Source: Acidaminococcales bacterium
GTDB lineage: Bacteria; Bacillota; Negativicutes; Acidaminococcales; JAISLQ01
Assembly: GCA_031552765.1 (NCBI GenBank)
Contig: JAVBME010000007.1
Span: 143,397 to 207,396 of the forward strand
Length of the DNA stretch: 64,000 nucleotides
Direction: 5' to 3'
Shown: one piece after another, positions 24,324-44,638 of the stretch
Layout: each line of letters starts with the position of its first letter
How positions within the stretch are numbered: position 1 is the stretch's first letter
Made by a program: the position numbers and the translations under genes
The notes under the pieces: generated by a model
The model's database searches: none
What the model saw: only the letters and a program-made list of their open reading frames with translations
Told to the model about the DNA's origin: nothing

Positions 24324-25424
24324 TTAGAATCTACGTGTAAAAAACTTATTGTCTTCAATAAGGCTGTCGGTCGTTTCAAAACCCAGGCGCATCAGGAGAG
24401 CTATGACGTAAGGATTATCGATAGGCGTTGGATAGAGGGCCTCTTCACCATATTCGTCCACTTTCACTGTGGCGTCGTCTTTATTGATGATGGATTTGGG
24501 ACCGCCGACACAGCCGCCGACACAGCCCATGCCTTCATAAAAGTTCGCTTCTATTTTACCTGCTGACAGCTCTTCCATCATAGCGCGGCAGGCGGCCACG
24601 CCATCCGCCTGTTTGGCGCGGATGGGAATTTTCCTTGTCGGATGGAGACGCACCAGAGTGGCTCTCACCGCCTCGCTGACTCCACCCGTATGGGCGTATA
24701 TACGCCCGGCGCGCGAGGAGAATTCTTTCTCGTTCTCCTGCATTATTTTAGGGTTTATCTTCATGGCCTGAAAAAGCTCTACTGTTTCCTGGAAGGTCAG
24801 GACATGGTCTATAGCGCCCTTGAGGTCCGGCTCTTTGGCTTCGGCCTTTTTAGCAAGACAGGGGCCGACAAATACTGTCATAGCCTCTGGGTGCAGTATT
24901 TTTACCGTGCGACCGGCCGCAATCATCGGCGACACAGTCGCCGGTACATGCGGCATCAGCTGGCCGTAGATCTTTCTTATCATGGCCAGCCACATCGGGC
25001 AACAGCAGCTGGTCAGCTGGTAGTCTGTTTCGGTATTGATATTTTGGTCAAATTCAAGCGCTTCCTTTAAAGTAAGGATATCGGCAAAGACCGCTACTTC
25101 CAGCATGCCGTCAAAGCCCAGTTTTTTAAAGGCGCTTCTTAACATGCCGGGCGTAACGCCAGCGCCGAACTGGCCGAGAAAGGCCGGCGCGACGAGCGCA
25201 TAGCTGTATTTAGGCTTTGCGCACAAGCCGTTTAGTACTGCGGCTACGTCGCGGCTGGCTGTCTCAGCAGCCTTGCAGGCGGCCTCGTTATCTATCGGCG
25301 GTTGCTTTTTGGGTGAAAAAAGACAGTTGAGCTGGCTGCGGTCAAATTCTTCAAAGTAATCGTCTCCCGTCTGCCGTTTGCCAGTGAGTACGATGCGTTC
25401 GTAAAGTTCTTTGAATGTCAACAT
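24324..25424 (-). CDS. [FeFe]-hydrogenase H-cluster-domain protein without accessory Fe-S domains
   Basis: Three H-cluster motifs are present in variant form: TSCCCPMW (L1), GPCLAKKAE (L2) and EGMGCVGGCVGGP (L3). The N-terminal 75 aa has no ferredoxin-type Cys clusters. Confidence 0.8.
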   Translation of the reverse strand: MLTFKELYERIVLTGKRQTGDDYFEEFDRSQLNCLFSPKKQPPIDNEAACKAAETASRDVAAVLNGLCAKPKYSYALVAPAFLGQFGAGVTPGMLRSAFKKLGFDGMLEVAVFADILTLKEALEFDQNINTETDYQLTSCCCPMWLAMIRKIYGQLMPHVPATVSPMIAAGRTVKILHPEAMTVFVGPCLAKKAEAKEPDLKGAIDHVLTFQETVELFQAMKINPKIMQENEKEFSSRAGRIYAHTGGVSEAVRATLVRLHPTRKIPIRAKQADGVAACRAMMEELSAGKIEANFYEGMGCVGGCVGGPKSIINKDDATVKVDEYGEEALYPTPIDNPYVIALLMRLGFETTDSLIEDNKFFTRRF

Positions 25425-25800
25425 TGGTATTTCCTCCTAATTTTTATAGTTCAAAAATATTAAAGCGGTTTCGCATTTTCTATATGTAAAATGACAACAA
25501 AATCAGCCGCCGGCATTGAGCAGCTGAAACACAATATTTTTGCTGGCAATCATTTTGTAAATATTATAACATAAATATTTGCTTTTTGGCCTGGTTTAAC
25601 TATCTAATTTATTTATGATAAAAGATAAAAAAATAAACATAGGTTAACGAAATATATGAATTTTCATGCTATTTTCGCGTTTATTATTTCTAAGTATAAA
25701 GTCATGCCTATACAGCAAAACAAATATAAAAATTGCCATATTAACAAAAGCATAATATACTAAAATGACTGAATATCATGAAAATGGGAGCGATATCGCA

Positions 25801-26595
25801 ATGAAAGTTGTTATATTAGCAGGAGGCCTTGGCACAAGGCTGGCTGAAGAGACGGATGTCAGGCCAAAGCCGATGGTGGAGATCGGCGGCCGGCCGGTAC
25901 TTTGGCACATAATGAAAATATATTCTTATTGGGGCTTTAATGAATTTGTCGTCCTTACAGGCTATAAGTCCCATATGATAAAAGATTATTTTATTAATTA
26001 TTACACCAGATATTCCGATATAACTGTTGATATGGCAAATAACTCGGTCGAAATACACAACCACCGCAACGAGCAGTGGAAGGTAAGCATGCTCTACACC
26101 GGGCCTGATACCATGACCGGCGGTCGGTTGCTCCGGGCCAGGGATTTTATCGGCAACGAGCGTTTTATGCTCACCTACGGCGACGGCGTCAGTGATGTTA
26201 ATATCCCTAAAGTTTTGCAGCAGCATGAAAAAATGGGCAAAATAGGTACTCTCACTTCAGTACAGCAGGGCGGAAAGTTTGGCGTACTGTCGATAGACAA
26301 CGACGGCTGCATATCATCTTTTGCCGAAAAACCAAAAGACGACTCTTCTTGGATCAATGGCGGCTTTTTTGTTTTTGAACCGAAAATATTTGATTATCTA
26401 AAGAACGGCGATGCCACAATTTTAGAGCGCGACCCGCTGGAAAATCTGGCTAAAGACAACCAACTGTGCGCCTATAAGCATGATGGCTTCTGGAAGGCCA
26501 TGGACACTTTAAGCGATAAAATACAGCTTACAAACATGTGGACAGGCGGCTACGCACCGTGGGCGCTGTGGCAGAAAAGGATAAACCATGTTTGA
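25801..26595 (+). CDS. rfbF: Glucose-1-phosphate cytidylyltransferase
   Basis: MKVVILAGGLGTRLAEETDVRPKPMVEIGGRPVLWHIMKIY is the canonical RfbF/DdhA N-terminus. Start moved to ATG 25801. Confidence 0.9.
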   Translation: MKVVILAGGLGTRLAEETDVRPKPMVEIGGRPVLWHIMKIYSYWGFNEFVVLTGYKSHMIKDYFINYYTRYSDITVDMANNSVEIHNHRNEQWKVSMLYTGPDTMTGGRLLRARDFIGNERFMLTYGDGVSDVNIPKVLQQHEKMGKIGTLTSVQQGGKFGVLSIDNDGCISSFAEKPKDDSSWINGGFFVFEPKIFDYLKNGDATILERDPLENLAKDNQLCAYKHDGFWKAMDTLSDKIQLTNMWTGGYAPWALWQKRINHV

Positions 26596-27655
26596 CATTT
26601 ATAACAAAAAAAAAGTCTTTATAACAGGACATAGCGGTTTTAAAGGCAGTTGGCTGACTTTTTGGCTAAAGTCATTGGGAGCCGATATTTTGGGCTATTC
26701 CCTGCCGCCTGTAACCCAGCCTAACCTTTATAGCGCAATAGGTATAGAAAACTGCTGCAACAGCGTTTTTGGCGATATACTGGATAAAGACAAACTAGCC
26801 GAAGCAATGCTAAGCTTCTCCCCTGATATAGTATTTCACCTGGCGGCGCAGCCGCTGGTCAGGCTGTCTTATAAAGAGCCTTTCCTGACTTACCAAACAA
26901 ACATCATCGGCACTTTGAATGTATTGGAAGCGGCCAGAAACTGCGCTTCCGTCAAGGCGCTGGTCAATATAACAACCGACAAATGCTATGAAAATATAGA
27001 AACAAATCACGGCTACAAAGAAGACGACCCTCTGGGCGGTTATGACATGTATTCTTCCTCCAAAGCCTGCGTAGAAATCATGTCCTCTTCCTATCGCCGC
27101 TCTTTTCTCAATAATGGCCAGCCCTATGCTCTCGCTACTGCACGCGCCGGTAACGTTATCGGCGGCGGCGACTGGGCTGAAGACCGTCTGATACCCGACT
27201 GCGTCCGCGCTATACAAAACAAAGAAAAAATACTCATACGCAATCCCCAGGCTGTCCGCCCCTGGCAACATGTCCTGGAACCGCTTTTCGGTTATCTGCT
27301 GCTAGGCAAAAAATTGCTAATAGAAGGCGAAAAATATGCCCAGGCCTTTAATTTCGGCCCAAATAAAGACAGTGTATTAAAAGTCACCGATATAGTCGAA
27401 GCTTTTATAAATGCCTATGGCCGCGGGCAAATGGTGATAGATAAAACTAATGGTCCGCACGAAGCAAACCTTTTGCTACTGGATATCGAAAAAGCGGAAA
27501 AAATATTGGGCTGGGCGCCCCAATACAGCGCCCTGGAAGCCATAGAAAAAACCTCCGCCTGGTATAAACATTTTTATAATGGCGACGATATGGCCGCCTT
27601 TACCCTAGCGCAAATAAAAGAGTTCGAGGGGAAACATGCTTGTAAACAGCACTGA
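26588..27655 (+). CDS. rfbG: CDP-glucose 4,6-dehydratase
   Basis: VFITGHSGFKGSWLTFWL, YSSSKAC catalytic YxxxK, RAGNVIGGGDW. Overlaps rfbF by 8 nt. Confidence 0.9.
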   Translation: MFDIYNKKKVFITGHSGFKGSWLTFWLKSLGADILGYSLPPVTQPNLYSAIGIENCCNSVFGDILDKDKLAEAMLSFSPDIVFHLAAQPLVRLSYKEPFLTYQTNIIGTLNVLEAARNCASVKALVNITTDKCYENIETNHGYKEDDPLGGYDMYSSSKACVEIMSSSYRRSFLNNGQPYALATARAGNVIGGGDWAEDRLIPDCVRAIQNKEKILIRNPQAVRPWQHVLEPLFGYLLLGKKLLIEGEKYAQAFNFGPNKDSVLKVTDIVEAFINAYGRGQMVIDKTNGPHEANLLLLDIEKAEKILGWAPQYSALEAIEKTSAWYKHFYNGDDMAAFTLAQIKEFEGKHACKQH

Positions 27656-28187
27656 TATTTTAGGACTTAACATAATAACAGCCACACCCAATCGTGATGA
27701 GCGGGGCTATTTCGTGCGCGAATTTTGCAGGCAGGAGCTATCCATAATACGTCCTGACCTTGTCATTGAACAGATAAATCACTCCCTGACCAGGCAAAAA
27801 GGCACTGTGCGCGGCCTGCATTTTCAATACCCTCCGCATGCCGAATTAAAAATAATCCGCTGCACAAAAGGCGGCATTTTTGACGTTGCGGTCGATTTGA
27901 GAAAAGACTCGCCTACCTTTTTAAAATGGCATGGCGAAATATTGACTGCCGAAAACATGAAAATGCTGGCCGTTCCTGAAGGCTTTGCTCATGGCTTTCA
28001 GGCATTGGAAGACGATGTCGAAATGTTTTATTACAATACACAGCCTTACTGCAAAGAAGCCGAAGGCGCTATCCGCTACGACGAACCGCTGGCCGCTGTA
28101 AAATGGCCGCTGGCTGTCACAGTAGTTTCGCAAAAAGACGGCGCCACGCCTTATATAAATGAAAAATTTAAAGGTATAGAACTGTGA
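27636..28187 (+). CDS. NDP-4-keto-6-deoxyhexose 3,5-epimerase (RmlC family)
   Basis: DERGYFVREF, VRGLHFQ, KIIRCTKGGIFDVAVDLR, PEGFAHGF. Confidence 0.8.
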   Translation: MLVNSTDILGLNIITATPNRDERGYFVREFCRQELSIIRPDLVIEQINHSLTRQKGTVRGLHFQYPPHAELKIIRCTKGGIFDVAVDLRKDSPTFLKWHGEILTAENMKMLAVPEGFAHGFQALEDDVEMFYYNTQPYCKEAEGAIRYDEPLAAVKWPLAVTVVSQKDGATPYINEKFKGIEL

Positions 28188-29068
28188 AAAAGGTTATTTT
28201 GACCGGCGCAACAGGGCTTATCGGCAAAGAAACCGTACAGCCTTTATTGGACAGCGGTTTTGAGATATATGCCTTTACTACTGGCAAGAAATATAACGAT
28301 GCACGAGTAAACTGGCTGCAAGCCGATATCCTTGACTACACAAAGATCCAAATGCTTTTATCTCAGATCAAAGCCGACTATCTCTTGCACTTTGCCTGGT
28401 TTACCGGCGAAGACTATCTGTCCTCTCCTATCAATTATAAGTTGCGTGATGCCAGCCTAAATTTATTGACCGAATTTAAAGAATACGGCGGTAAGCGGGC
28501 GGTCTTTGCCGGAACTTGTTTTGAGTACCAATTTAAAGATACGCCTCTAAAAGAAACAGACACGCTAAATCCCACAACAATCTATGCCCAATGTAAAAAC
28601 CAGCTGCGCGAACAAGCACAGGACTATGCTGAAAAAAACGCCCTTTCCTTTGGCTGGGGACGCATCTTCTACGTATACGGCCATGGCGAAAACGAAAAAC
28701 GACTTGTGCCATATATCATCAACTCTTTGAAAAACAATCAAAAAACCATTATAAATAGCGGCCCTTTATTGCGCGACTATATGTACAGCAAAGATATCGC
28801 CGCCGCTTTTGCAAAATTCTTGGATAGCAATGTAACTGGCTGTGTAAACATAGCCGCCGGCCAAGGTATATATATAAAAGACATTGCCCTTGAAATAGCA
28901 AAGCAACTAGATAAAACACACCTTTTGGAATTTATTGATAACGTCGGCAACCAGCCGCTGGTTATTGTTGGTGATGTTGGCAGACTAAATTCCGAAGTAG
29001 ATTATAAAATACAATATAAACTTGAACAGGCATTGGAAAAAATACTGGAGGAAAATGTCCTAATATGA
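28184..29068 (+). CDS. NAD-dependent epimerase/reductase (extended SDR), probable 4-ketoreductase
   Basis: ILTGATGLIGKE Rossmann motif and YAQCK (YxxxK). GTG start overlaps the upstream stop (GTGA). Confidence 0.75.
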   Translation: MKKVILTGATGLIGKETVQPLLDSGFEIYAFTTGKKYNDARVNWLQADILDYTKIQMLLSQIKADYLLHFAWFTGEDYLSSPINYKLRDASLNLLTEFKEYGGKRAVFAGTCFEYQFKDTPLKETDTLNPTTIYAQCKNQLREQAQDYAEKNALSFGWGRIFYVYGHGENEKRLVPYIINSLKNNQKTIINSGPLLRDYMYSKDIAAAFAKFLDSNVTGCVNIAAGQGIYIKDIALEIAKQLDKTHLLEFIDNVGNQPLVIVGDVGRLNSEVDYKIQYKLEQALEKILEENVLI

Positions 29069-30075
29069 AAGCAGAATTTAAGCCCAGGATAGATTTGAAA
29101 AACCGGACGCGACTCGAAACCGTAATACCGCTAAGAACACCCTTCATTATAAACATAGACCCGTCCGACGCCTGCAATTTCCAGTGCAAGTTCTGTCCTA
29201 CCGGCGACCGTGAGTTAATGAAAAAAACACCCGGCCGCAACCATGGCATAATGGATTATGATCTTTATAAAAAAATAATTGGCGACATCTGCCAATTCGA
29301 AGACAAAGTAAAGGTCATCCGCCTTTACAAAGACGGCGAACCGCTTTTGAACCCGCACTTTTCCGACATGGTCGCTTATGCCAAACAATCAGGCTGTTGC
29401 GACCGGGTAGATACCACCACAAACGCCGCACTTTTAACTCCTGAACTTAGCCTCAAAATAATCGAGGCTGGCCTCGACCGCATAAACATTTCCGTAGAAG
29501 GCGTCAATGAAGAACAATACCTTGATTTTTCCCGTTATAAAATAGACTTTGCCAAATTCGTTGATAACATCAGATTTTTTTACGAACACCGCAAACAATG
29601 TGAAATGATCGTCAAAATAAACGGCGATATCCTCAATGAACAGCAAAAACAGGAATTTCTCGATATCTTTGGTGATATCTCCGACGGCATCTTCATTGAA
29701 AGCATCATGGAGTGCTGGCCTACCTACGAAATGGAAAAAGTAACCGCCAATAAAGAACGCGGCATATACGGACAGCAAATCAAAGAAGTGCTTGTCTGCC
29801 CTTATGTATTTTATTCTTTTCCTATAAATTCCGACGGTACATACAGCCTGTGTTTTCTCGACTGGTCACGAAAGCTATTGATGGGCAATGCAAGAGACAC
29901 CACCGCAAAAGAACTATGGAACAGCCGTGAAATGAAAGACTATCAACTGATGTTTCTTAAAGGCGAAAGAAAAAAACACCCTATTTGCAGTGAATGCGGC
30001 CAATTAAGACAGGGACAGCCTGATGATATTGATGGTTTTGCTAGCAATTTATTAAAAACCTTTAGTAATTTATAA
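29065..30075 (+). CDS. Radical SAM protein with C-terminal SPASM/twitch-like Cys motifs (paralog 1)
   Basis: CNFQCKFCPTG (CxxxCxxC), GEPLLNP, and C-terminal Cys set CPY..LCFLDW..CSECG. Confidence 0.85.
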   Translation: MKAEFKPRIDLKNRTRLETVIPLRTPFIINIDPSDACNFQCKFCPTGDRELMKKTPGRNHGIMDYDLYKKIIGDICQFEDKVKVIRLYKDGEPLLNPHFSDMVAYAKQSGCCDRVDTTTNAALLTPELSLKIIEAGLDRINISVEGVNEEQYLDFSRYKIDFAKFVDNIRFFYEHRKQCEMIVKINGDILNEQQKQEFLDIFGDISDGIFIESIMECWPTYEMEKVTANKERGIYGQQIKEVLVCPYVFYSFPINSDGTYSLCFLDWSRKLLMGNARDTTAKELWNSREMKDYQLMFLKGERKKHPICSECGQLRQGQPDDIDGFASNLLKTFSNL

Positions 30076-30091
30076 TGGAGTGTAAATTTAT

Positions 30092-31099
30092 ATGAAAGCA
30101 TCTGTTAAATACCGAGTAAATATGGAAGAACATTCGGTACTTGGAGAAGTAGCGCCACTATCCGCCCCATATGTACTTCTTGTTGATCCTTCAAATCTTT
30201 GCAATTTCAGGTGTAAGTTTTGCCCCACGGGAAACGACCAGCTTATTCGCTCAACAAACAGATATAATGGCCTTTTGGATTTTGATTTATTTAAAAAAAT
30301 AATAAATGATTTAAATGAATTTGATGAACCTGTACGTGTGCTTCGCTTGTATAAAGAAGGCGAACCTTTAATACACCCTAAATTCCCCGATATGGTAAAG
30401 TACGCAAAAGATTCTGGCTTTATACAAAAAGTAGATACAACAACTAATGGCGCACTCTTAAATCCTGAGTTAAACAGGAAAATTATCCAAGCCGGGTTAG
30501 GACAAATAAATATTTCTGTTAACGGCATAAACTCTGAACAGATTTATCATTATACTAAGGCGAAAATAAATTTTGACACATATGTCAACAATATAAAAAA
30601 CTTATATGAAAATCGCGGCAATTGTGAAATTTCTATAAAAGCAATTAAAGAAAACTTAAGTGATGATGAACAAAAAAAATTCTTTGATATATTCGGCAAT
30701 ATTTGTAATCGTATTGTTTTAGAACATCTGTCTCCTGCTTGGCCAAAATTTGAATTTGCCAATGATATTCAAAAGGAATTTCCTTGTGGGAATTATGGGC
30801 AAGAAATATTGGAAAGAAATATTTGTCCGTATATTTTTTATATAATGGTAATAAATTCAAGCGGAAAAGCAAGTACCTGTGTTGGCGACTGGCCAAATAA
30901 ACTTATTGTAGGCGACTTGAAAACTGAATCGGTAAAAAAAGTATGGCAAGGCGAACTTTTAAACAAACATCGCATTGCGCATCTTAAAGGCCGCCGAAAC
31001 GATAATGATTTTTGTGGCGCCTGTCAGGTTGTATCACATGGGACGCTTGATAATTTAGATGAATATGCTGAAAATATTTTAAAGAGGATGCAGGCATGA
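30092..31099 (+). CDS. Radical SAM protein with C-terminal SPASM/twitch-like Cys motifs (paralog 2)
   Basis: CNFRCKFCPTG, GEPLIHP, CPY..TCVGDW..CGACQ. Collinear with paralog 1 over its full length by eye. Confidence 0.85.
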   Translation: MKASVKYRVNMEEHSVLGEVAPLSAPYVLLVDPSNLCNFRCKFCPTGNDQLIRSTNRYNGLLDFDLFKKIINDLNEFDEPVRVLRLYKEGEPLIHPKFPDMVKYAKDSGFIQKVDTTTNGALLNPELNRKIIQAGLGQINISVNGINSEQIYHYTKAKINFDTYVNNIKNLYENRGNCEISIKAIKENLSDDEQKKFFDIFGNICNRIVLEHLSPAWPKFEFANDIQKEFPCGNYGQEILERNICPYIFYIMVINSSGKASTCVGDWPNKLIVGDLKTESVKKVWQGELLNKHRIAHLKGRRNDNDFCGACQVVSHGTLDNLDEYAENILKRMQA

Positions 31100-32106
31100 A
31101 AGTTCTATTCATTGGCGGAAATGGCAATATAAGTTGGTATTGTACAAAAAAATCCATAGAAAAAGGGCATGAAGTCTATGCCTTAAACCGTGAAGTAACT
31201 GTCAGTACGCGCAGAAATTTTCCTGCTGAGGTTATTAAACTAAAAGGCGATATTCGAAATGCATCTGAAATAAAAGACTTGCTTAAATCTTTCACTTTCG
31301 ATGTAATATGCGATTTTATTTGTTTTAACCAAGAACATGCACAAACTGCCATAGATATTTTTCAAGCGAAAACAAATCAATATGTTTTTGTAAGTTCAGA
31401 AGCTGTTTATCAGAGAAAATCAAAATATCTACCCTTTAAAGAAAATTGTCCCAAATATGATGCCGACTCTTCATGTGAATATATAAAAGGCAAAATAAAA
31501 GCAGAAGAAACTTTTTTAAAAGCATATTATCATCACGACTTTCCTGTAACAATAGTAAGACCTGGATATACCTATGATACTATAATGCCCGTATCTATTG
31601 GACAAAATTGTTTCACAGCGCCTAGCAGATTTTTAAATGGTAAACCAATATTGATAGCAGGCGATGGCAACAATCTGTGGACTTTTACACATTCAAATGA
31701 TTTTGCCAATGCTTTTGTGGAATTAATTGGCAATAAAGATGCCATTGGTGATGATTTTCATATAACATCTGATGAATGGCTAACTTGGAATGAAGCAACA
31801 GAGATATTATTACAGGAACTTGGAGTAAAAAACCATAAATTTATTCATATTCCTTTTGATGAGGCCATGAAAACTGAATTCGCCGCACAAAAAGAAATGA
31901 TGTTCCAAAAAATGTGGCACAATATTTACGACAATTCGAAAATAAAAAAGATCTCGCCAAATTGGCAAGCAAAAACTTCTTTTGCTGAAGGCATAAAGCA
32001 AACAATAATCTGGCTATACGAAAATGACGCGCACCGCCGCATAGATAAACAACTCGATGAAAAATTGGAAAAACTAACCCAAAAATATATTGAGAGGATT
32101 ATATAA
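31096..32106 (+). CDS. NAD-dependent epimerase/dehydratase family protein (SDR)
   Basis: VLFIGGNGNISWY Rossmann motif and YIKGK (YxxxK). Overlaps the upstream stop. Confidence 0.75.
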   Translation: MKVLFIGGNGNISWYCTKKSIEKGHEVYALNREVTVSTRRNFPAEVIKLKGDIRNASEIKDLLKSFTFDVICDFICFNQEHAQTAIDIFQAKTNQYVFVSSEAVYQRKSKYLPFKENCPKYDADSSCEYIKGKIKAEETFLKAYYHHDFPVTIVRPGYTYDTIMPVSIGQNCFTAPSRFLNGKPILIAGDGNNLWTFTHSNDFANAFVELIGNKDAIGDDFHITSDEWLTWNEATEILLQELGVKNHKFIHIPFDEAMKTEFAAQKEMMFQKMWHNIYDNSKIKKISPNWQAKTSFAEGIKQTIIWLYENDAHRRIDKQLDEKLEKLTQKYIERII

Positions 32107-32107
32107 A

Positions 32108-33271
32108 ATGCCCCAAAAATGTCCTATATGCCAATCTGAAAAGAAAGAATTTATATCTGAATTATGCGGCAATATGTCTATAATGGGTAGTAGTTTCCCA
32201 GCATGCAGCAGCCACAATGTCGTTTGCATGGATTGTGGCTGTGTTTATGTTGATATAAACACAACACAGAATGCATTTGACAAATATTACAATTCCGAAA
32301 TGAGCAAAGGTATTGCTTATTTTGACTTATTTGGTATAAAACAAACCTTGGACTACTATCAACACATACATGAATCCATTAAAAAGCATGTAACACTTGA
32401 CAGCCAAATTCTTGATATGGGCTGCGGTTTGGGGGATTTCCCAAGATATCTTATGGATTTGGGTTATAAAAATATCCTTGCTGTTGAACCATCATCAATA
32501 AATGTACAACTTGCAAAAGAAAAAGGTGTTAGTTGCATTCAGGATGATAGTTTTTCTATAAATCAAATGCTTACCGGTAAATTTGATATTATAATATTAA
32601 GCCATGTCCACGAGCATATTTTTGACGCTGCCTTGGCAATGGAAAATATAAAAACCATGCTAAAACCTGCCGGTATAATATATTTTGAAGTTCCGGATGC
32701 TGTCAGATATTGTGATGTTGATTTTTCGCCGTATTTCTTTTTTACATATGAGCATGTCATCCATTATACAAAAAACACTTTGTCTAATATTGCCAAATCT
32801 TTTGGTTTGGAATTAATTGAAACTGACCAATACCTCAAATGCGAAAGTTACTATGTTTTATATGGATTATTTAAAAATAATGGCAAGTTCGCAAATACTG
32901 AATATAGTGACGAAACTAAATCTGCTGTACAAAAATATTTAGATTTTAGTATATTGAATTTGAGAAACTTTGTTGAAAAACTTGAGAGAAGCCAAGAAGA
33001 AATCATCTTATGGGGTATAGGCGCCTCAACAGCCCAGCTCTTAAGCGGAACATTCGATAAATGCAATGTGATACAACTCATTGACAGTAATCCATCAAGG
33101 CAGGGACTCAAATTTAAAATAGGCAATTCTTGTCTTTGCATAGAATCACCTGAAAAAATTGTAAGCAGTAACTCAACCATAGTTGTATTGCCTGTTATGT
33201 ACAAAAAATCTATTATAAGTCAAATACGGGCAATGGGTTTTAAAAATAAGATACTTGCTTTAAAAGACTGA
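32108..33271 (+). CDS. SAM-dependent methyltransferase with N-terminal Zn-ribbon and C-terminal C-methyltransferase-type domain (TylCIII-like NDP-hexose C-methyltransferase architecture)
   Basis: CPICQS..CMDCGCVY Zn-ribbon, ILDMGCGLGDF SAM motif I, and a C-terminal Rossmann-like module ILWGIGAS..LIDSNPSRQG. Start moved to ATG 32108 (GAGAGGA SD). Confidence 0.65.
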   Translation: MPQKCPICQSEKKEFISELCGNMSIMGSSFPACSSHNVVCMDCGCVYVDINTTQNAFDKYYNSEMSKGIAYFDLFGIKQTLDYYQHIHESIKKHVTLDSQILDMGCGLGDFPRYLMDLGYKNILAVEPSSINVQLAKEKGVSCIQDDSFSINQMLTGKFDIIILSHVHEHIFDAALAMENIKTMLKPAGIIYFEVPDAVRYCDVDFSPYFFFTYEHVIHYTKNTLSNIAKSFGLELIETDQYLKCESYYVLYGLFKNNGKFANTEYSDETKSAVQKYLDFSILNLRNFVEKLERSQEEIILWGIGASTAQLLSGTFDKCNVIQLIDSNPSRQGLKFKIGNSCLCIESPEKIVSSNSTIVVLPVMYKKSIISQIRAMGFKNKILALKD

Positions 33272-33293
33272 ATTTATAGAAAGAAGGCTAAAA

Positions 33294-33872
33294 ATGCAAG
33301 TTACTTGGAATAATCTCTTAGAAGAAGTTAAACTACTTAAACCTCAGTTTGATGCAATAGAGGAAAAAATACAAGACGGCATTTTCCTTTTCGGCGCCGG
33401 ACAATTTGGTCAAACTTCTTTAGAATATTTACAGGAAAAAAATTATAATGTTGCTTCTTTTATTGACAATTCTATTCAAAAACACGGCAAAGACGTCAAT
33501 GGAATAAATGTTATACCCCTTTCACATTTGCGTATACAGATACAATCATTAACTTTACTCAACAACAAGCAAAACACCAGGGACAATGGGAAAATCGCAA
33601 CATACAGTATTGATTGTTTCTTCGATAATATTCCTGTAACATTTTTTAAAGTAGACATTGAAGGTTTTGAAATGAGGCTCTTGTATAGTGCCAAAAAGAC
33701 AATTTTGAAAAACAATCCCAAAATTGCAATATGCACTTATCATAAATCGAGCGATATATTTGATTTTATAGACTTTATCAAACAATTAGTGCCTGAATAT
33801 CGGTTTGCCTTGCGACATCATTCTTATAGTTTATTGGAAACAGTATTATACTGCTGGTGTGAAGATGAGTAA
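33294..33872 (+). pseudogene. Truncated FkbM-type methyltransferase paralog (SAM-binding core missing)
   Basis: Its N-terminal module (FLFGAGQFG..FIDNSIQKHGKDVNGINV) and C-terminal end (FFKVDIEGFEMRLL..ICTYHKSSDIFDF) align with the ends of the 414-aa FkbM protein at 35150. About 200 central residues, including motif I, are absent. Confidence 0.5.
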
Positions 33873-35133
33873 AACTCGTATCCTCCATATAACCCCCCAT
33901 CTAGGTGGTGGCGTTGGTCAGGTATTATTAAATTATCTGTCTTTCGATAAAATAAACTGTCACAGCATAGCTACACTTGAACATGCCAATGAAAAAGCAT
34001 TAAAAATTGCGCAAAAAGAAAGCATAGCAATATATTCTTCCATAAGTCAAAAACTACATGATTTATTGCTTTTAATCAAAAATACAGATATTGTTATTGT
34101 GCACTTTTGGAATCACCCGCTTTTGTATTCTTTTCTGTTAAAAAATCCTCTTCCACCTGCAAGAGTTATTTTTTGGTCGCATATTTCCGGTTTTGATCCT
34201 CCTTATGTTTTTCCACCTAAAATATTAGATTATCCGGATAAATTTGTTTTTACCACTCCCCTTAGCTTCAATACCCAAGAAATTCGGGAGTTTTATGATA
34301 AAAACAAACTCGCAGTAGTTTTTTCTACTGGCGGCATAAATCACGTGAAAGATATTTCACCACAGCCACATACTTCTTTTAATATAGGTTATATTGGAAC
34401 AGTAGACTACGCAAAAATGCATCCTGATTTCATAAATGTGCATAAAAAAACAAATATCCCTAATGTAAAATTTATCATCGTTGGCGGCGACAATGAAAAA
34501 GAAATCGCCCAAGCTGCCGATGAACGCTTTGAATTTACCGGAAAGGTCCCAGATATTCGTCCTTACTTATCCAAGATGGATGTTTTTGGTTACTTGCTGA
34601 GTGAAAAGCATTATGGCACAGGCGAACAAGTATTGCAAGAAGCAATGTCAGTTGGAGTTGTACCGGTTGTTCTCAATAACCCAATAGAAAGTCTTATAGT
34701 AAAGCATGGTGAGACCGGACTAGTAGCGAAGAATACTGACGAATATATAAAATATATAGAATTACTGTATTTTGATGACATTCTAAGAAAAAATTTATCA
34801 CAAAATGCAAAGGCCTATGCAAACACTAATTTTTCTTTAAATATTCTCTGCAGTAAATGGAATGCTATATATAATGAAATTATAAAAATGCCTAAAAAAG
34901 AACGGCAATATAGCAAAAAAACCGACTATAGGCCTGCGGAAATATTCTTAGAATCACTGGGAAAATATCACGAACCTTTCTCATTGTATTTGGAAAAGGG
35001 CGACGTTTCCTTACTAGAAGGTATTTTGAAACAGCCACAATGGAGTTCAGAAACCAAAGGTACGCCCAAACACTATTACCAATTTTTTAATGATGACTTA
35101 CAGCTAAAGAAAATTATTGACTTATATAGATAA
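33865..35133 (+). CDS. GT-B glycosyltransferase (family 4/1-like)
   Basis: MSKTRILHITPHLGGGVGQ N-terminus and C-terminal GTGEQVLQEAMSVGVVPVV..GETG (EX7E-type). Start moved to ATG 33865, overlapping the upstream stop (ATGAGTAA). Confidence 0.8.
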   Translation: MSKTRILHITPHLGGGVGQVLLNYLSFDKINCHSIATLEHANEKALKIAQKESIAIYSSISQKLHDLLLLIKNTDIVIVHFWNHPLLYSFLLKNPLPPARVIFWSHISGFDPPYVFPPKILDYPDKFVFTTPLSFNTQEIREFYDKNKLAVVFSTGGINHVKDISPQPHTSFNIGYIGTVDYAKMHPDFINVHKKTNIPNVKFIIVGGDNEKEIAQAADERFEFTGKVPDIRPYLSKMDVFGYLLSEKHYGTGEQVLQEAMSVGVVPVVLNNPIESLIVKHGETGLVAKNTDEYIKYIELLYFDDILRKNLSQNAKAYANTNFSLNILCSKWNAIYNEIIKMPKKERQYSKKTDYRPAEIFLESLGKYHEPFSLYLEKGDVSLLEGILKQPQWSSETKGTPKHYYQFFNDDLQLKKIIDLYR

Positions 35134-35149
35134 TAAAAGGAGTTAATAG

Positions 35150-36394
35150 ATGGATATCAAACAATTATTAAGCCCGGATTATAAAATAAATATTGAACAA
35201 ATGCACAATCTACATCACTACATATCTAAACCAATCGTCATATTCTCTGCTTCCTCTGGCGGCAAAGCTATAACTGATTACTTAAAAGATACTTACAATA
35301 AATATCCAATAGCTTTTGCTGATAATAGCAAAGAAAAACAGGGCACATTATTTGAAGGTATACCTATCTACTCGTTTGATGAAATACGCCATAAATATGA
35401 CTTTTCAGAAATAACTGTAATAAATGCCTCAGATTCATTTCGCAATGAAATTTATATCCAACTAAAGACTGCCGGGTTACCAGATGATTCATATATGGAT
35501 ATACAATTTCTAGCCGCTTTTGATGAAAATTTTTTGCAACATAAAAACTTTATAACACAAAACACCCAATCTATGCTATTGGATTATGTTTCAGATGTAT
35601 GGACAAAAAGCAGTCAATTTCATAATCTTGGTAAAAGAGCAGTCGATAACATAAGATATGACGATTACCTTATGCAAAACGCTGCTAAACTGGAAGCTGT
35701 TTATGATATACTGGCTGATAGCAAATCTAAAGATATATATGAGAAATATATCCACGGCGCTGGCAATAGTCATATCAACACCAAATATAAATATACCATC
35801 CTTGATAGTGTCCGCGATGGTAATTATTACCTTGGCGGCGATATCATAAAACTTGACGAAAATGAAGTGTTTGTCATGGCCGGAGCATATGGTGGTATTG
35901 ATAGCATTAAATTTGCTGAACAAACAAAAGGCAAATACTCTCATATAGTCACTTTCGAACCCGACAAAGAAAACTTTCTCAAAGCTAAAGAAAACTTAGA
36001 GAGTTATGGTTTGCAAAGATATCATATATTTAACGAAGCCTTGTATAGCAAAGATTGCACACTGTATTTTGCAGCGGATGGAGATATGGGTTCCAAGATA
36101 GAAAATACCGGTACGATAGAAGTAAAAGCTGTTACACTTGACGGTTGCATGGAAAGGCTTGGTATTTGGCCCTCTTATATACGCCTGGATGTGGAAGGCG
36201 CTGAAGCCGAGGCCTTGCTCGGTACTAAAAAGATTATAGAAAATCATCAACCAAAACTACAAATCAGTATCTACCACAAAAAAGAAGATATTTTTGAACT
36301 GCCTCTTCTTATAAAAAAACTGAATCCCAAATATGATATATATATACGTGCTCATGCCGATTTGTTGTGTAGTATGGTTTGTTACGCTATTTAG
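35150..36394 (+). CDS. FkbM-family methyltransferase with N-terminal Rossmann-like module
   Basis: VFVMAGAYGGIDS (motif I), VTFEPDKENF, IRLDVEGAEAEAL, ISIYHKKEDIF. Confidence 0.8.
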   Translation: MDIKQLLSPDYKINIEQMHNLHHYISKPIVIFSASSGGKAITDYLKDTYNKYPIAFADNSKEKQGTLFEGIPIYSFDEIRHKYDFSEITVINASDSFRNEIYIQLKTAGLPDDSYMDIQFLAAFDENFLQHKNFITQNTQSMLLDYVSDVWTKSSQFHNLGKRAVDNIRYDDYLMQNAAKLEAVYDILADSKSKDIYEKYIHGAGNSHINTKYKYTILDSVRDGNYYLGGDIIKLDENEVFVMAGAYGGIDSIKFAEQTKGKYSHIVTFEPDKENFLKAKENLESYGLQRYHIFNEALYSKDCTLYFAADGDMGSKIENTGTIEVKAVTLDGCMERLGIWPSYIRLDVEGAEAEALLGTKKIIENHQPKLQISIYHKKEDIFELPLLIKKLNPKYDIYIRAHADLLCSMVCYAI

Positions 36395-36396
36395 AT

Positions 36397-36440
36397 AAAA
36401 AAAGACTCAAGGTTAAAAAAACAACCTTGAGTTTTTTTCT
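36397..36440. terminator. Bidirectional terminator where the two glycan operons converge
   Basis: GACTCAAGGTT-AAAAAAAC-AACCTTGAGT with an A-run before and a T-run after. Confidence 0.75.
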
Positions 36441-37538
36441 TTAAAGAGTAAAATCTTCCTCTCTCAAAGGTATATACCCGCACGGCGGCACAAATGGTTT
36501 TTGGGTACCTGGCGGAGAAGACTCTTCCAGCTGTTTTATCTCATCCAAACAAATTTTTGCGTCAAAGCGTTCCTGGTAAACATGCTTTTGCAACAATTTA
36601 AAGGTTGGATTGTTTGCTATCTCCAAATCAAAACCTTGAATTAAAAATAGATATTTTTTGAAAAGAACAATATTGTCCTCTGCAAACTCTTCGCCTTTGA
36701 GTAAAGGCGCTTTCAATAACCAATAAATCGCGTAATTGAGAATATAGTTGCTGACTTTTTTCTCCATTTCTTCGCGCCTTTGTAAAACATTTTCCAATTT
36801 ATTTTGTTCCGCTAGTTCCAGCATATCCAAATATAGAAGATAACGGTCTATTGCCATAGTCATACGTTTAATATGATTAGCGCCTAAAGCTCCTGAATGG
36901 ATTCTTTGTCCCATCAGTTTTTCATTTATATATCCCATATCTGAATACATGCTATATTTAAAACATCCCTCCCAATCCATAAAATTGCTTTCTCGGCCAG
37001 TATTATATATATTAATTTTTTCAAGTAATTCTTTGCGTATAGCTGTTTGCGGAAAACCACCCAAAGACGCCACAGCCCAAACGGGGAGTTGCTTCTCCTT
37101 AGGCACTATACAACTGCGATCGTAAAAAGGTTTTATTATATTAGCCGCTTCTCCATGTTCATCAATAACATCATAATCTACCATTACAAAGCCGACGTTT
37201 TTGTTTTTATTCATAATGACAGCAGCTTTTTCAGCAATTGTCGGCCTTAGTACATCATCAGCAGCTAAAAGTATAACATATTTGCCACTAGCTAATCGGC
37301 AAACTCTATCAAAATTTTTTCCTGCCCCTATATTTGTGTCATTCTGATATATCTTTATTCTATCCTTATATTTATTTGCTATTTCCATAGAATTATCAGT
37401 TGAACAATTATCGCTGAATATTACCTCGATATTCGGATAAGTCTGGTTTATCGCGCTTTGAATACAGCCATCTAAATAACGGCCATAGTTATAGTTTGGT
37501 ATGCAGATACTGACTAAAGGATACTTTTTTTTTGACAT
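36441..37538 (-). CDS. Family 2 glycosyltransferase
   Basis: VSICIPNYNYGRYLDGCIQSAINQTYPNIEVIFSDNCSTDNS and LLAADD (DxD-type). Confidence 0.85.
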   Translation of the reverse strand: MSKKKYPLVSICIPNYNYGRYLDGCIQSAINQTYPNIEVIFSDNCSTDNSMEIANKYKDRIKIYQNDTNIGAGKNFDRVCRLASGKYVILLAADDVLRPTIAEKAAVIMNKNKNVGFVMVDYDVIDEHGEAANIIKPFYDRSCIVPKEKQLPVWAVASLGGFPQTAIRKELLEKINIYNTGRESNFMDWEGCFKYSMYSDMGYINEKLMGQRIHSGALGANHIKRMTMAIDRYLLYLDMLELAEQNKLENVLQRREEMEKKVSNYILNYAIYWLLKAPLLKGEEFAEDNIVLFKKYLFLIQGFDLEIANNPTFKLLQKHVYQERFDAKICLDEIKQLEESSPPGTQKPFVPPCGYIPLREEDFTL

Positions 37539-37611: not shown

Positions 37612-38903
37612 CTACAAGCATGTACACAAGTTGTTCATACGATGACAGTCGGACATTGAAAAACATTCGCTTGAATAACCGACTGTTAGACCATTTTTCT
37701 TGCACTGAGCCACAAAATATACATAAATGTCAAATTGTTGTTCAGTGATGTTTGGCAATGGGCTGCCAATTTTTTTTGCTTCTAAAATGCTACTTAAATC
37801 ATTCGATAATATAACCAGGTCCGCTTTCAACCTTTGCGCAATATCAATAAACCCATTTATATCGTCAAAGTTGTCATTTATTCCCGGTATCAAAATATAT
37901 TTTAATTCAATACGACAATTGGTTTGGGCATATCTTTCAATGTTTGAAACTACCTTATAAAAAGTATCAGGTCCTTTTATCCTTTTATATGTTGCAGAAG
38001 TCCCCGCATCCAGGCTAACATTTAGGCAAGAAAGAGGTCTACTTAATATTTCCGCTAAACTATCATTATATATCGCTGCATTAGTACATACCCTGGCAAA
38101 CCAATTCCTGTCTTTTATCAATTTAAGAAGTTTGTCTCTATGGGGTAAAACGGTAATCTCCCCATCAACAAGACACACTGATTTTATTGAATCACCAAAT
38201 TCATCAGCTAAAATAAGGTGTATATCATATCCGTCTAAAACTTGATCGCTTCCAGAAAAAGCCGTATCTGACTGATTACAGTAAATACAGCGGAATTACA
38301 AGTAGTATTGGCAAAACCGGCACCGGCAGACAGCCATCTTATTTCAACATCTCTCGGCCAATAATCCCATTTTAGCAATGAGCAGCCATCACAGTCGGTC
38401 GGAACATCTGTTTTCATTCGTTCAAGCGTATCTTTCAGCCACAAACGAAAATCACCAATAGCGGACCTGACACTCTGCTCTGTAGGCATTTTTTCATTAT
38501 AACTAATCAGTTTACTATATGGAGTACAACATGCTGTAATTCCATACTTGCTAACAACCATTTCGCCCGACAATTGGCGGCACCCGCGCCTATATACTAC
38601 CTCTTCACAATACCGTATTCTTTCTTTCGGGATACTTTGCTCCAATAAGTAATTTGTGATGCTTTGCAAATTACCTGGCTGAGCGGTTACATAAATAATA
38701 TAATCAGGATATTTGGTTATTGCGTCAGCAAGAGAGTATATTGGGTATCCCTCACTTGAATCTTTAGATCCAAGTGAAAACAATTTATCGTGTTTTTTGC
38801 TGTCAATATCTGCAAAACAAACCGGTTCGCCGATCTTTTCTAGCCAACGGCTGAAATTTTGTATGGCATATCCTCCGGCGCCGTAAAAAATTTTTGCTTC
38901 CAT
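37612..38903 (-). pseudogene. Radical SAM enzyme with N-terminal Rossmann-like module, split by a 1-nt frameshift inside the CxxxCxxC motif
   Basis: ORFs 38235..38918 and 37612..38178 are two pieces of one gene. Shifting frame at 38290/38291 gives ..FANTTCNS(A)CIYCNQSDTAFSGSDQVLDGYDIHLILADEFGDSIKSVCLVDGEITVLP..NVSLDAGT... The DNA reads TGT AAT TCC GC- TGT ATT TAC TGT. Confidence 0.7.
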
Positions 38904-38946
38904 GCTTAAAACCTCCACGATATAGTTATCAAGTGTATTAACTCTT

Positions 38947-41097: not shown

Positions 41098-41114
41098 AGG
41101 TAAACACCTCTATT

Positions 41115-41357
41115 TTACGGCAAATGCCTGTTTATAGCCTCTATAAAATCCGCCACGCATTTTATTTTGCTCACTTCGCCCAGTTCCAGCGTTATATCGA
41201 ACTCTTCCTCCGCCATAATGACCAGCTTCACCTGGGCGACCGAGTCCCACTCAAGCAAAGTTTCCGGTGAAGTTTCATCAGATATTGCCATCGAGGGGTC
41301 GTCGAAAACTTCCCGGAAGATATTGCGCAGCCTTATACGCAGGGCGGCTTTGTCCAT
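41115..41357 (-). CDS. Acyl carrier protein (ACP-2)
   Basis: 80 aa with a LEWDSVAQVKL phosphopantetheine-site-like DSx motif. GAGGTG SD. Confidence 0.75.
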   Translation of the reverse strand: MDKAALRIRLRNIFREVFDDPSMAISDETSPETLLEWDSVAQVKLVIMAEEEFDITLELGEVSKIKCVADFIEAINRHLP

Positions 41358-41417
41358 GTTTTAACACCTCTTCTTGTAATTTCTGCCATATATTTGGCAA
41401 TAAACGCCTTATCGGAT

Positions 41418-42491: not shown

Positions 42492-42517
42492 AATAGCTTT
42501 TCCTCTTGACTATAAAT

Positions 42518-43276
42518 CTATGCTAAAAATCCGCCATCTACAACCACATCGGTGCCTGTGATCCAACCCGAGCGGCTGCTAAGCAAAAACAGCGCAACTC
42601 CGCTAACATCACAAGTCGTTCCCGTGCCGATCAAATGCTGGTCAATATAGCTCTGATCGCGCACCAGTTCATATTTTGTCGTCATTTTGGTATCGACAAC
42701 ACCCGGGCTTATAGAGTTTACTCTATGCTGCTTGGCCGATATTTCCTTGGCGGCAGATTGCACGGCCACTTTCACGGCGGCCTTTGCCGCGCTGTAGGCA
42801 AAAAAACCCTTTTGTCCGCGGCTTGCGCTGGCGGAAGCAAACAACACATTCGAAGTGCCGCGGTTGGCATAAGAGACCTTGGTAACCAACTGCAAAAGCT
42901 TCATGCCCGCCCAAAAGCTGACGTCCATTATAGCTTTTGCCGAAGCTTCGTCATAACTTTTTAAAGGAGTTATATCAATAATCCCTGCTACATGGACACA
43001 GCCGTCCAGTTTGCCGCAAGCGGTCACAAACGCCTTTATACATTCTTCGAGTTTGTCATATTGCCTTACATCACATATTCCGGTTACGATATTGTCTTTA
43101 TACTGCTTTTGCAATTCTCCCAGCTCTTCTTCACGCCTGGCGATAGCCAAGACCTTGGCGTTGGCCGCTGCCAGGTCCGCAGCTATTTGCCTGCCGATAC
43201 CGGACGAAGCCCCGGTCACAACAAAGTTTTTACCTGTAAAATCATAGCTTATATCATTAGATTGCATACTCTTCAC
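42518..43276 (-). CDS. Short-chain dehydrogenase/reductase (FabG-like ketoreductase)
   Basis: VVTGASSGIGRQ and YSAAKAAV. Start is uncertain: GTG 43276 or ATG 43267. Confidence 0.8.
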   Translation of the reverse strand: MKSMQSNDISYDFTGKNFVVTGASSGIGRQIAADLAAANAKVLAIARREEELGELQKQYKDNIVTGICDVRQYDKLEECIKAFVTACGKLDGCVHVAGIIDITPLKSYDEASAKAIMDVSFWAGMKLLQLVTKVSYANRGTSNVLFASASASRGQKGFFAYSAAKAAVKVAVQSAAKEISAKQHRVNSISPGVVDTKMTTKYELVRDQSYIDQHLIGTGTTCDVSGVALFLLSSRSGWITGTDVVVDGGFLA

Positions 43277-43334
43277 TCGTTTCGCAAAGATTTGCCAGGT
43301 TTACTTTATAAATCCATAGCCTGGCAAAAGTTTT

Positions 43335-43544: not shown

Positions 43545-43571
43545 GTTTAAACAACCTCCTCTTTTTTTATA

Positions 43572-44624: not shown

Positions 44625-44638
44625 TTTCATACACACCT

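Follow-up and report, generated by a model that had tools for sequence, protein, structure and literature searches.

Twitch radical SAM enzymes as probable sugar-tailoring components of a CDP-6-deoxyhexose operon in an Acidaminococcales bacterium

A 64,000-nucleotide (nt) stretch of an Acidaminococcales bacterium genome (assembly GCA_031552765.1, contig JAVBME010000007.1, positions 143,397 to 207,396 of the forward strand; hereafter the window, with its first letter as position 1) harbors an operon for a cytidine diphosphate (CDP)-activated 6-deoxyhexose. Two adjacent genes of this operon encode the radical S-adenosylmethionine (SAM) enzymes rSAM_A and rSAM_B, in the following A and B. Both are predicted twitch enzymes with one SAM-cleaving and one fully Cys-ligated auxiliary [4Fe-4S] cluster, and not SPASM enzymes. 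They are probably carbohydrate-tailoring enzymes of the surrounding CDP-sugar pathway. A more specific proposal, which is tentative and held with less than even confidence, makes the CDP-sugar itself their substrate, with A as an epimerase and B as an oxidant.

Classification of the two radical SAM enzymes

A and B are 43% identical across 332 amino acids (aa; E=5e-108). Both exceed the cut-off of the radical SAM superfamily domain PF04055 (A 65.5 bits, B 61.6 bits, cut-off 29.5) and lie above the threshold of PF13186 (A 46.5 bits, B 38.4 bits), where the match covers the part of the domain that is common to twitch enzymes. The radical SAM motif reads CNFQCKFCPTG in A and CNFRCKFCPTG in B. Toward the C terminus both proteins carry four further Cys, which are found in a CPY motif (C245), a C..DW motif (C263), and a CxxC motif (C308/C311). 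A first-pass annotation of the sequence had noted the CNF(Q/R)CKFCPTG motif and the four-Cys set in both paralogs and had read the proteins as radical SAM enzymes with an auxiliary-cluster domain. Both points are borne out by the sequences, by the two domain matches, and by the relationship to BtrN described below. The conservation of the C-terminal Cys, which had been named beforehand as a test that could speak against this assignment, is complete: none of the three plus four Cys varies among the 91 paralogs from 63 loci or among 63 database homologs.

The SPASM-like label given in the same annotation has to be replaced. Only four C-terminal Cys are conserved, no Cys follows C311, and the seven-Cys SPASM set including the CX2CX5CX3C motif is absent. 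C263, C308, and C311 align residue for residue with C187, C232, and C235 of BtrN, which gives the four-Cys pattern of twitch enzymes. The spacing of 18 residues between C245 and C263 is one that we take to equal the C169-C187 spacing in BtrN. Because there are just four C-terminal Cys and because the ligands align with those of BtrN, both enzymes are predicted to be of the one-cluster twitch type rather than the two-cluster SPASM type.

In searches with a family profile, BtrN is by far the best solved relative (E=3e-18), followed by MoaA (6e-12). The AlphaFold2 (AF2) model of A, with a predicted local distance difference test (pLDDT) score of 93.8, resembles BtrN most closely in Foldseek (rank 1), followed by anSME (rank 2) and DesII (rank 3). 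EpeE is found at rank 33, and MoaA, BlsE, and SpeY are also among the fold neighbors. The identities to all of these folds are 12-18%. A and B are not BtrN orthologs, which is illustrated by the identity of 15-18%, a template modeling (TM) score of 0.50-0.56 (query-normalized), and the CDP-sugar operon context. The sequence alignment with BtrN is split and leaves query residues 140-249 unaligned.

No curated family scores above its cut-off for A or B. The top NCBIfam model, a tungsten-cofactor maturase, reaches 75.5 bits compared to a cut-off of 380. The DesII model TIGR04426 gives 26.5 bits for A and 27.1 bits for B (cut-off 450), and the DesII sequence match is confined to the radical SAM core (residues 26-186). 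N_Twi_rSAM (NF033640) gives 74 bits for A and 57 bits for B (cut-off 170), with matches that begin only at model position ~104 and with the N-terminal domain missing. The AprD4 diol dehydratases (NF033070) are not among the 25 best listed model matches of A or B.

The CDP-6-deoxyhexose operon

A and B are part of a single + strand operon (25765-36394) of packed open reading frames (ORFs), most of which overlap at their junctions by 4-20 nt, while A and B are separated by 16 nt (Table 1). The arrangement described in the first-pass annotation, rfbF, rfbG, an RmlC-like epimerase, and a short-chain dehydrogenase/reductase (SDR) followed by two collinear paralogs of about 335 aa, agrees with the coordinates and with the hidden Markov model (HMM) scores. 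All four enzymes of a CDP-6-deoxyhexose front end, of the type known from Campylobacter jejuni HS:41, are encoded in this one operon. On the model TIGR01221 the RmlC-like protein scores 152.6 bits, slightly below the cut-off of 155.75, and PDB match no. 2 of the first SDR (SDR1) is a GDP (guanosine diphosphate)-6-deoxy-D-lyxo-4-hexulose reductase (2pk3). A promoter and terminator scan of 25300-36600 yielded 33 promoter-like sites, which is no excess over the 39 expected from shuffles; one of these sites lies ahead of rfbF at 25733-25761.

RfbH (E1), the C3-deoxygenating enzyme, is absent from the whole 64-kb window, as judged by tblastn with a bona fide RfbH query that scores 720 bits on NF011936. 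The island likewise holds no unassigned ORF of E1 or E3 size and no ORF of the Fer2/FNR type. The classical CDP-3,6-dideoxyhexose route (RfbH/DdhC with DdhD/AscD) was not found in the window.

Table 1. Features of the CDP-6-deoxyhexose operon (positions in the window).
Feature	Position	Strand	Basis
rfbF, glucose-1-phosphate cytidylyltransferase (yields CDP-glucose)	25765-26595	+	TIGR02623 equivalog, 366.8 bits, cut-off 300
rfbG, CDP-glucose 4,6-dehydratase	26588-27655	+	TIGR02622 equivalog, 480.3 bits, cut-off 278
RmlC-like 4-keto-6-deoxyhexose 3,5- (or mono-) epimerase	27636-28187	+	PF00908, 184.7 bits
SDR1, extended SDR, probable C4-ketoreductase	28184-29068	+	PF01370, 115.8 bits
rSAM_A, twitch radical SAM, subfamily A, 336 aa	29065-30075	+	PF04055 and PF13186
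rSAM_A CX3CX2C (C37, C41, C44), radical SAM cluster ligands	29173-29196	+	invariant in paralogs
rSAM_A Cys217, motif xCWP, candidate H-atom donor	29713-29715	+	loop after beta-6
rSAM_A twitch Cys C245, C263, C308, C311 (one predicted auxiliary [4Fe-4S])	29797-29997	+	invariant; BtrN alignment
rSAM_B, twitch radical SAM, subfamily B, 335 aa	30092-31099	+	43% identity to A; separate clade
rSAM_B CX3CX2C	30200-30223	+	
rSAM_B twitch Cys C245, C263, C308, C311	30824-31024	+	invariant
SDR2, divergent extended SDR, partner of B	31096-32106	+	PF01370, 59.2 bits
MT393, divergent nucleoside diphosphate (NDP)-sugar C-methyltransferase-like	32108-33271 (alternative TTG start 32090)	+	predicted fold, Zn-ribbon, Glu-His pair
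Small FkbM-related protein, 192 aa	33294-33872	+	PF05050, 32 bits
GT1-like glycosyltransferase	33865-35133	+	PF00534, 65.2 bits
FkbM-family methyltransferase	35150-36394	+	PF05050, 45 bits

Genomic association of the A family

In a scan that took a single genome for each species, A-family members (48-78% identity) turned up at 59 loci. Partner genes were counted in those 40 whose flanks extend 5 kb or more on either side. The most constant partner is the GT1-like gene (35/40), followed by an SDR (34/40), rmlC (31/40), rfbF and an FkbM-type gene (29/40 each), and rfbG (27/40). The frequent company of rfbF and rfbG in other genomes answers a check that the first-pass annotation had put forward. 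An SDR gene lies directly upstream of A in 27/50 A-orthologs.

The commonest cassette order is rfbF-rfbG-rmlC-[C-methyltransferase]-SDR-A-GT1-like-FkbM, in which the C-methyltransferase is of the canonical TylCIII type (PF08421 and PF08484). In most relatives, C-methylation precedes the radical step, with the C-methyltransferase gene placed before the SDR and A. The cassettes vary in size: minimal ones combine A with a single SDR, and several loci contain three to seven paralogs. In locus L076, a Sulfurimonas contig, genes of an anti-phage type (GmrSD_N, AAA_15/DUF3696) lie between both twitch radical SAM genes (4801-7999).

This gene context also bears on the idea that A and B are protein, peptide, or cofactor maturases that merely sit in a glycan island, which is highly improbable. 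It could draw on the PF13186 matches, on anSME as the second-ranked fold, and on the best NCBIfam models by E-value, which are the tungsten-cofactor maturase (75 bits), MoaA, NirJ, and ScmF. Every one of these models, however, stays far under its cut-off (for example 75.5 compared to 380, or 64 compared to 284). The four C-terminal Cys leave no second SPASM cluster, the genes overlap or lie 16 nt apart with no space for a precursor peptide, and the window contains no sulfatase. Sugar genes surround the family in about three quarters of the well-flanked loci. The first-pass annotation had itself singled out a maturase clade with a cognate substrate gene nearby as the outcome to watch for; no assignment to the maturases of RiPPs (peptides that are made on ribosomes and modified after translation), of sulfatases, or of cofactors was obtained for A and B from HMM matches and cognate genes.

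A in C3-methylating and C3-deoxygenating cassettes

The canonical TylCIII-type C-methyltransferase is present in 24 loci and a true RfbH in at least 13 others. No locus belongs to both sets, and A is found in either kind. The identity of RfbH is given by NF011936 (720 bits, cut-off 423), and tblastn matches were found in 15 related loci. The window has neither the canonical C-methyltransferase nor RfbH. The claim of the first-pass annotation that the E1/E3 pair is missing is hence correct for the window as searched by tblastn, but not as a property of the system, in which at least 13 related loci pair an A-ortholog with a true RfbH.

In 3-C-methyl cassettes, C3 is without hydrogen, and in 3-deoxy cassettes it is a methylene. 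Since A accompanies both C3-methylating and C3-deoxygenating genes, C3 is an unlikely target carbon of A. A radical SAM enzyme as a substitute for E1/E3 in C3-deoxygenation was considered and rejected on account of the true RfbH alongside A in these loci. Several CDP-sugar scaffolds carry the radical SAM enzymes as an add-on. Loci with RfbH include L001, L011, L016, L046, and L048, and the gene is located directly upstream of the A-ortholog in L001, L003, and L004. An E3-type (ferredoxin-NADP reductase-like) gene was not found among the checked neighboring ORFs of the RfbH loci.

Clade-specific Cys residues

The most conspicuous difference between the clades concerns position 217. Cys217, in the motif xCWP, is kept in 50/50 cassette-linked A-orthologs and is replaced by Tyr in 7 orphans. 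The position is occupied by Ala/Pro in B, by Ile in a third clade, and mostly by Leu/Val/Thr in distant paralogs; most of these distant paralogs carry a CC pair at 263/264. According to the order of secondary structures in the AF2 model, residue 217 lies five residues past beta-6, in a long loop without regular structure. In EpeE, the H-atom donor Cys223 is located on a flexible loop on the substrate side opposite SAM (PMC13012085). NeoN relies on Cys249 as the donor (cited in PMC10991966). Because Cys217 is clade-specific and loop-placed, like Cys223 of EpeE and Cys249 of NeoN, it is a good candidate donor, and A is by analogy a candidate epimerase.

A second Cys, Cys179, is kept in 33/34 B sequences and is a possible donor in B. 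As a general H-donor it was set aside for A, where the position is Cys in 43/58 sequences and Met or Thr otherwise, and where it is placed at the N-terminal start of beta-5, by secondary-structure order alone.

The Tyr217 subclade comprises the loci L031, L032, L035, L039, L042, L044, and L045 and belongs to the A family (58-65% identity). Its members are solitary and far from sugar genes, and CRFDW replaces CFLDW in their sequences. The neighbors in L032 are an agmatine deiminase, a carbon-nitrogen hydrolase, and transporters. The substrate of this subclade may differ.

Downstream partners of A and B

The start of SDR2 overlaps the stop of B here and in the loci L075 and L076, and this translational coupling is consistent with a division into epimerase (A) and oxidant (B). 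In most B loci an SDR2-type gene lies no more than two genes from B. The best PDB match of SDR2 is Pal (6bwl).

The pairing with SDRs also gives rise to a different view of the pathway, in which SDR1 and A as well as B and SDR2 form functional pairs. A radical dehydration or oxidation would be followed by reduction with nicotinamide adenine dinucleotide (phosphate) (NAD(P)H), and no true epimerase would take part. With the same logic as AprD4/AprD3, or as BtrN and a second enzyme acting after it, the pairs would bring about a further deoxygenation or an inversion at C2 or C4. This view is rather unlikely. The SDR-A and B-SDR2 genes are indeed adjacent with overlapping stop and start codons, and the window holds two radical SAM genes and two SDRs without E1/E3. 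In addition, the nearest solved relatives are dehydrogenases or lyases (BtrN, SpeY, DesII), and four Cys are predicted to provide all ligands of the auxiliary cluster, as is the case for the dehydrogenase BtrN. Yet the minimal cassettes have one SDR, which is already required for the 4-keto group introduced by RfbG, and the number of SDRs does not track the number of radical SAM genes, as on the Brachyspira hyodysenteriae plasmid pBHWA1 with seven radical SAM genes and one cassette SDR. The loci that have both A and RfbH argue against a C3-deoxygenation device. The AprD4 model belongs to the class with a B12 domain and matches only one unrelated enzyme of 610 aa in the window (see below). Finally, the pairs would leave the clade-specific Cys217 unexplained.

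MT393 follows SDR2 and takes on the architecture of NDP-sugar C-methyltransferases. Its predicted model (pLDDT 95.4) has NDP-sugar C3-methyltransferases as all of its top 18 PDB folds, namely MtmC, KijD1, and TcaB9 (E 5e-19 to 8e-17). The next fold match (9e-11) is separated by an E-value gap of eight orders. The Zn-ribbon residues C5, C40, and C43 and the E215-H216 pair are invariant, and C8 is kept in at least 90% of sequences. Compared to a canonical C-methyltransferase, MT393 is 24% identical over 347 aa, and its EH aligns with the canonical HEH. PF08484 scores 16.3 bits, under the cut-off of 23.5, and PF08421 is undetected. The Zn-ribbon/SAM-methyltransferase/C-terminal-domain architecture with a TylCIII/TcaB9 fold that the first-pass annotation had described is in this way strong by fold and weak by sequence. 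The MT393 family is small (76 sequences) and shares contigs with A and B.

The GT1-like glycosyltransferase is 41-54% identical across phyla, which is unusually high for a glycan transferase. Two natural fusions link the activities physically: P0466 (775 aa) consists of a twitch radical SAM domain fused to a full-length homolog of GT1-like (29% identity over 434 aa, E=2e-54), and in P0410 (688 aa) the fusion partner of the twitch radical SAM domain is a class I methyltransferase. These fusions are Rosetta-stone evidence, at the level of gene architecture, that radical SAM, GT1-like, and methyltransferase activities are likely to work together. The 192-aa ORF upstream of the GT1-like gene has a PglD_N-like N terminus. 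Its interpretation as a truncated FkbM gene was rejected, as it is conserved as a small protein in ten related loci at 35-49% identity, often just upstream of GT1-like.

The prominence of the glycosyltransferase raises the question of whether A and B act only after it, epimerizing or oxidizing a lipid- or glycan-bound 6-deoxyhexose in the manner of radical SAM peptide epimerases. This order of events is judged improbable, but not negligible. It would agree with the GT1-like gene as the most constant and highly conserved neighbor, with the fusion P0466, and with the three to seven paralogs per locus, which are easier to accommodate with several glycan sites. In B. hyodysenteriae, radical SAM, glycosyltransferase, SDR, and RmlC-like genes are moreover gained and lost as a block (PMC4267127). 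Against it, the identity of A-orthologs across phyla (58-78%) points to one small invariant substrate, and A is mostly found between the sugar-nucleotide enzymes and the transferase, directly after the SDR. The characterized sugar-acting relatives BtrN, DesII, SpeY, and BlsE all take small soluble substrates, and the fusion fits the channeling of a labile donor sugar equally well.

Proposed route

If A and B act on the CDP-sugar itself, the pathway would begin with the formation of CDP-glucose by RfbF and its conversion to CDP-4-keto-6-deoxyglucose by RfbG, two steps that are predicted from the equivalog HMM matches. The RmlC-like enzyme would epimerize beside the keto group, and SDR1 would subsequently reduce C4, yielding a CDP-6-deoxy-L-hexose; both assignments follow from the enzyme families, from the order of the genes, and from the precedent of Campylobacter HS:41. 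A would then abstract a hydrogen from a ring carbon beyond the reach of keto-enol chemistry, most likely C2 (or C4/C5) and not C3. The resulting substrate radical would be quenched by Cys217 from the opposite face, which leads to a redox-neutral epimerization. B, which is without Cys217, would convert the radical into a keto (or deoxy-keto) sugar and pass the electron to the auxiliary cluster as in BtrN. The TcaB9-like MT393 may subsequently C-methylate beside the keto group formed by B, followed by a reduction through SDR2. GT1-like would install the finished sugar, and the FkbM enzymes would O-methylate.

A redox-neutral step of A fits the minimal cassettes, in which one SDR accompanies A. 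The identity of 58-78% among A-orthologs of different phyla fits a small and conserved substrate of A.

Several points weigh against this route. The seven loci of the Tyr217 subclade have no sugar genes nearby. The GT1-like gene as the strongest partner, together with the fusion, fits a transferred sugar as well as a CDP-sugar. Loci such as pBHWA1, where a single SDR is accompanied by five to seven radical SAM genes, are left unexplained by a model with one epimerase. Cys179 could be an H-donor of B's own, and B would then be an epimerase too. MT393 comes after SDR2 in the gene order, and the sequence of oxidation, methylation, and reduction is assumed from chemistry. The reaction type of A and B cannot be read from their sequences.

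Comparison with known enzymes and pathways

BtrN, the 2-deoxy-scyllo-inosamine dehydrogenase of butirosin biosynthesis (4m7t) and founding twitch enzyme, has a single auxiliary [4Fe-4S] cluster, as is predicted for A and B, and its substrate is a carbohydrate-like carbinol. It differs from A and B by its low identity (see above), by its length (A and B are ~85 residues longer), and by its free aminocyclitol substrate. BtrN also has no counterpart of Cys217 of A in the aligned regions, and it belongs to an antibiotic context, compared to a surface glycan here.

HygY and NeoN are twitch sugar epimerases from aminoglycoside pathways that abstract a hydrogen from a sugar carbon and use a dedicated Cys for the quench, as is proposed for A. 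The likeness would be one of mechanism; their substrates are aminoglycoside pseudo-oligosaccharides and not CDP-sugars. In HygY, mutation of the donor Cys reportedly turns the epimerase into a dehydrogenase. EpeE/YydG (8ai6) resembles A in its single auxiliary cluster within an extended twitch domain, and its donor Cys is loop-borne like the candidate donor of A. It differs in its peptide substrate and is undetected by the sequence profile, and Cys217 and Cys223 are equated by analogy and not by an alignment.

DesII, the TDP (thymidine diphosphate)-4-amino-4,6-dideoxyglucose deaminase/dehydrogenase, matches A in its fold, with a substrate that is dTDP-linked and not CDP-linked. To our knowledge, it is the only characterized radical SAM enzyme that acts on a nucleotide-linked 6-deoxyhexose. 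DesII is not known to have an auxiliary cluster.

Among complete pathways, the CDP-6-deoxy-L-altrose/CDP-D-fucose pathway of C. jejuni HS:41 (HS41.21-HS41.17) has been proven biochemically (PMC12369002). It shares with the window a cytidylyltransferase, a CDP-glucose 4,6-dehydratase, a 3,5-epimerase, and a C4-reductase that uses reduced nicotinamide adenine dinucleotide phosphate (NADPH), in the same order and without E1/E3. The difference lies in the fifth enzyme, which is a pyranose-furanose mutase dependent on reduced flavin adenine dinucleotide (FADH2) in HS:41, whereas twitch radical SAM enzymes take this position here. MT393 has the same three-domain fold, four-Cys Zn ribbon, and catalytic Glu-His pair as TylCIII, TcaB9, KijD1, and MtmC, but the identity is 13-16% and the canonical members occupy a different cassette slot.

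A literature search returned no paper that ties radical SAM enzymes to CDP-sugars, which is weak evidence of absence given that most subscription journals were outside its scope. A literature search for vinelose, a CDP-linked sugar brought up by the first-pass annotation, likewise found no paper.

Origin and spread of the two subfamilies

The first-pass annotation had described A and B as tandem paralogs. In the sense of a local duplication this has to be rejected. A tree built from the 91 paralogs separates A and B into two clades, each of which extends across many genomes. The GC content per gene is 41-46% from rfbF through A and 32-35% from rSAM_B through a broken radical SAM gene (~38 kb), with ~50% in the flanking genome. 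The step from 42% to 34% lies exactly at the border of A and B, at ~30080. A and B are two ancient orthologous groups that were joined by recombination. Because the GC content falls at this border, the block of B, SDR2, the methyltransferase, and the glycosyltransferase looks separately acquired. At least two acquired pieces make up the mosaic operon.

The family is large. At E<=1e-10, 2845 homologs were found for A and 1316 for B, and an exhaustive profile search for A/B gave 1,490 clusters (50% identity) at E<=1e-30. A-family members occur in Spirochaetota, Clostridia, Melainabacteria (Gastranaerophilales), Bacteroidota, Chlorobiota, Desulfobacterota, Planctomycetota, Chloroflexota, and Alpha-, Beta-, and Gammaproteobacteria. 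The hosts include gut anaerobes, spirochaetes, and sulfate reducers, and also aerobes such as Novosphingobium and Methylotuvimicrobium.

The related locus of Brachyspira hyodysenteriae

A relative of the operon is found on pBHWA1, the 36-kb plasmid of B. hyodysenteriae strain WA1. A block of four genes on this plasmid (genes 13-16) is present in virulent strains and absent from strains with reduced pathogenic potential (PMC4267127); by gene order it corresponds to BHWA1_02678-02681. In a 2025 survey of 251 genomes, the block was still annotated merely as "radical SAM domain protein" and the like (PMC12131820). The plasmid shares with the window an A-ortholog (66%), a GT1-like gene (44%), SDR1 (47%), an RmlC-like gene (40%), rfbF (53%), and a gene for an FkbH-like HAD protein. 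Unlike the window, it has another four A/B-like paralogs and an additional two radical SAM genes, and it lacks a B-clade member, rfbG beside rfbF, and MT393. No clear CDP-glucose 4,6-dehydratase was found on pBHWA1, where the best candidate is 25% identical. A gene for a 367-aa SPASM-type radical SAM protein (L073, NC_012226.1, 18925-20028) fills the usual slot of rfbG, which lies between rfbF and the RmlC-like gene.

Other radical SAM and glycan genes in the window

Downstream of the operon, the window contains additional radical SAM genes on the opposite strand. The ORFs 38235-38918 and 37612-38178 make up one radical SAM gene of 430 aa (37612-38918, - strand) with a 1-base frameshift in its own CX3CX2C motif. 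At the frameshift site TGTAATTCCGC^TGTATTTACTGT, one added base restores CNSA-CIYC. The gene could be a pseudogene or the result of a sequencing error. The repaired protein starts with an N-terminal domain of ~195 aa and has no curated family match; similar radical SAM genes of 440-450 aa are found in L001 and L048.

A fourth radical SAM gene of the glycan island, at 48406-50238 (- strand), encodes a 610-aa B12-binding enzyme. The best model is HpnJ, with 235 bits compared to a cut-off of 578; on the AprD4 model NF033070 the enzyme reaches 96 bits (cut-off 500). The gene adjoins a 649-aa glycosyltransferase-like gene and a GDP-mannose 4,6-dehydratase (50385-51482). In L046, a B12 radical SAM gene directly follows the A-ortholog.

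The region 38947-46479 (- strand) encodes an FkbH-domain protein (716 aa; TIGR01686, 309 bits), two KASIII (FabH-like) proteins, a FabG-like SDR, a GNAT protein, and an RmlD-like reductase. The gene set resembles a cassette for a sugar with an acyl or glyceryl modification. On pBHWA1, too, an FkbH-like HAD gene is paired with a radical SAM gene.

Implications

Radical SAM tailoring of sugars is known from few antibiotic pathways (BtrN, DesII, NeoN, HygY, SpeY, AprD4, BlsE). What the window would add for twitch radical SAM enzymes is CDP-sugars as a substrate class and cell-surface glycans as a context. Possibly, though short of probably, A and B represent the first radical SAM family on CDP-activated sugars, one that spans phyla and whose subfamilies differ in a single quenching residue, which would be Cys217 in A, Cys179 or none in B, and a CC pair elsewhere. 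If this is true, the family would consist of epimerases or oxidants at ring carbons beyond classical keto-enol sugar chemistry. Together with a dedicated and sometimes fused glycosyltransferase, it would give rise to undescribed isomers of 6-deoxy, 3-C-methyl, or 3,6-dideoxy hexoses in bacterial glycans, including a surface sugar of the virulence-associated plasmid block of B. hyodysenteriae. The four-gene plasmid marker of pathogenic potential in swine dysentery would thereby gain a biochemical meaning. Cys, Tyr, Ala, and Ile all occur naturally at position 217, which provides a ready-made experiment on epimerization compared to oxidation in twitch enzymes. Because the family is large, highly conserved, and widespread, a sizeable part of bacterial surface-sugar chemistry may await assignment.

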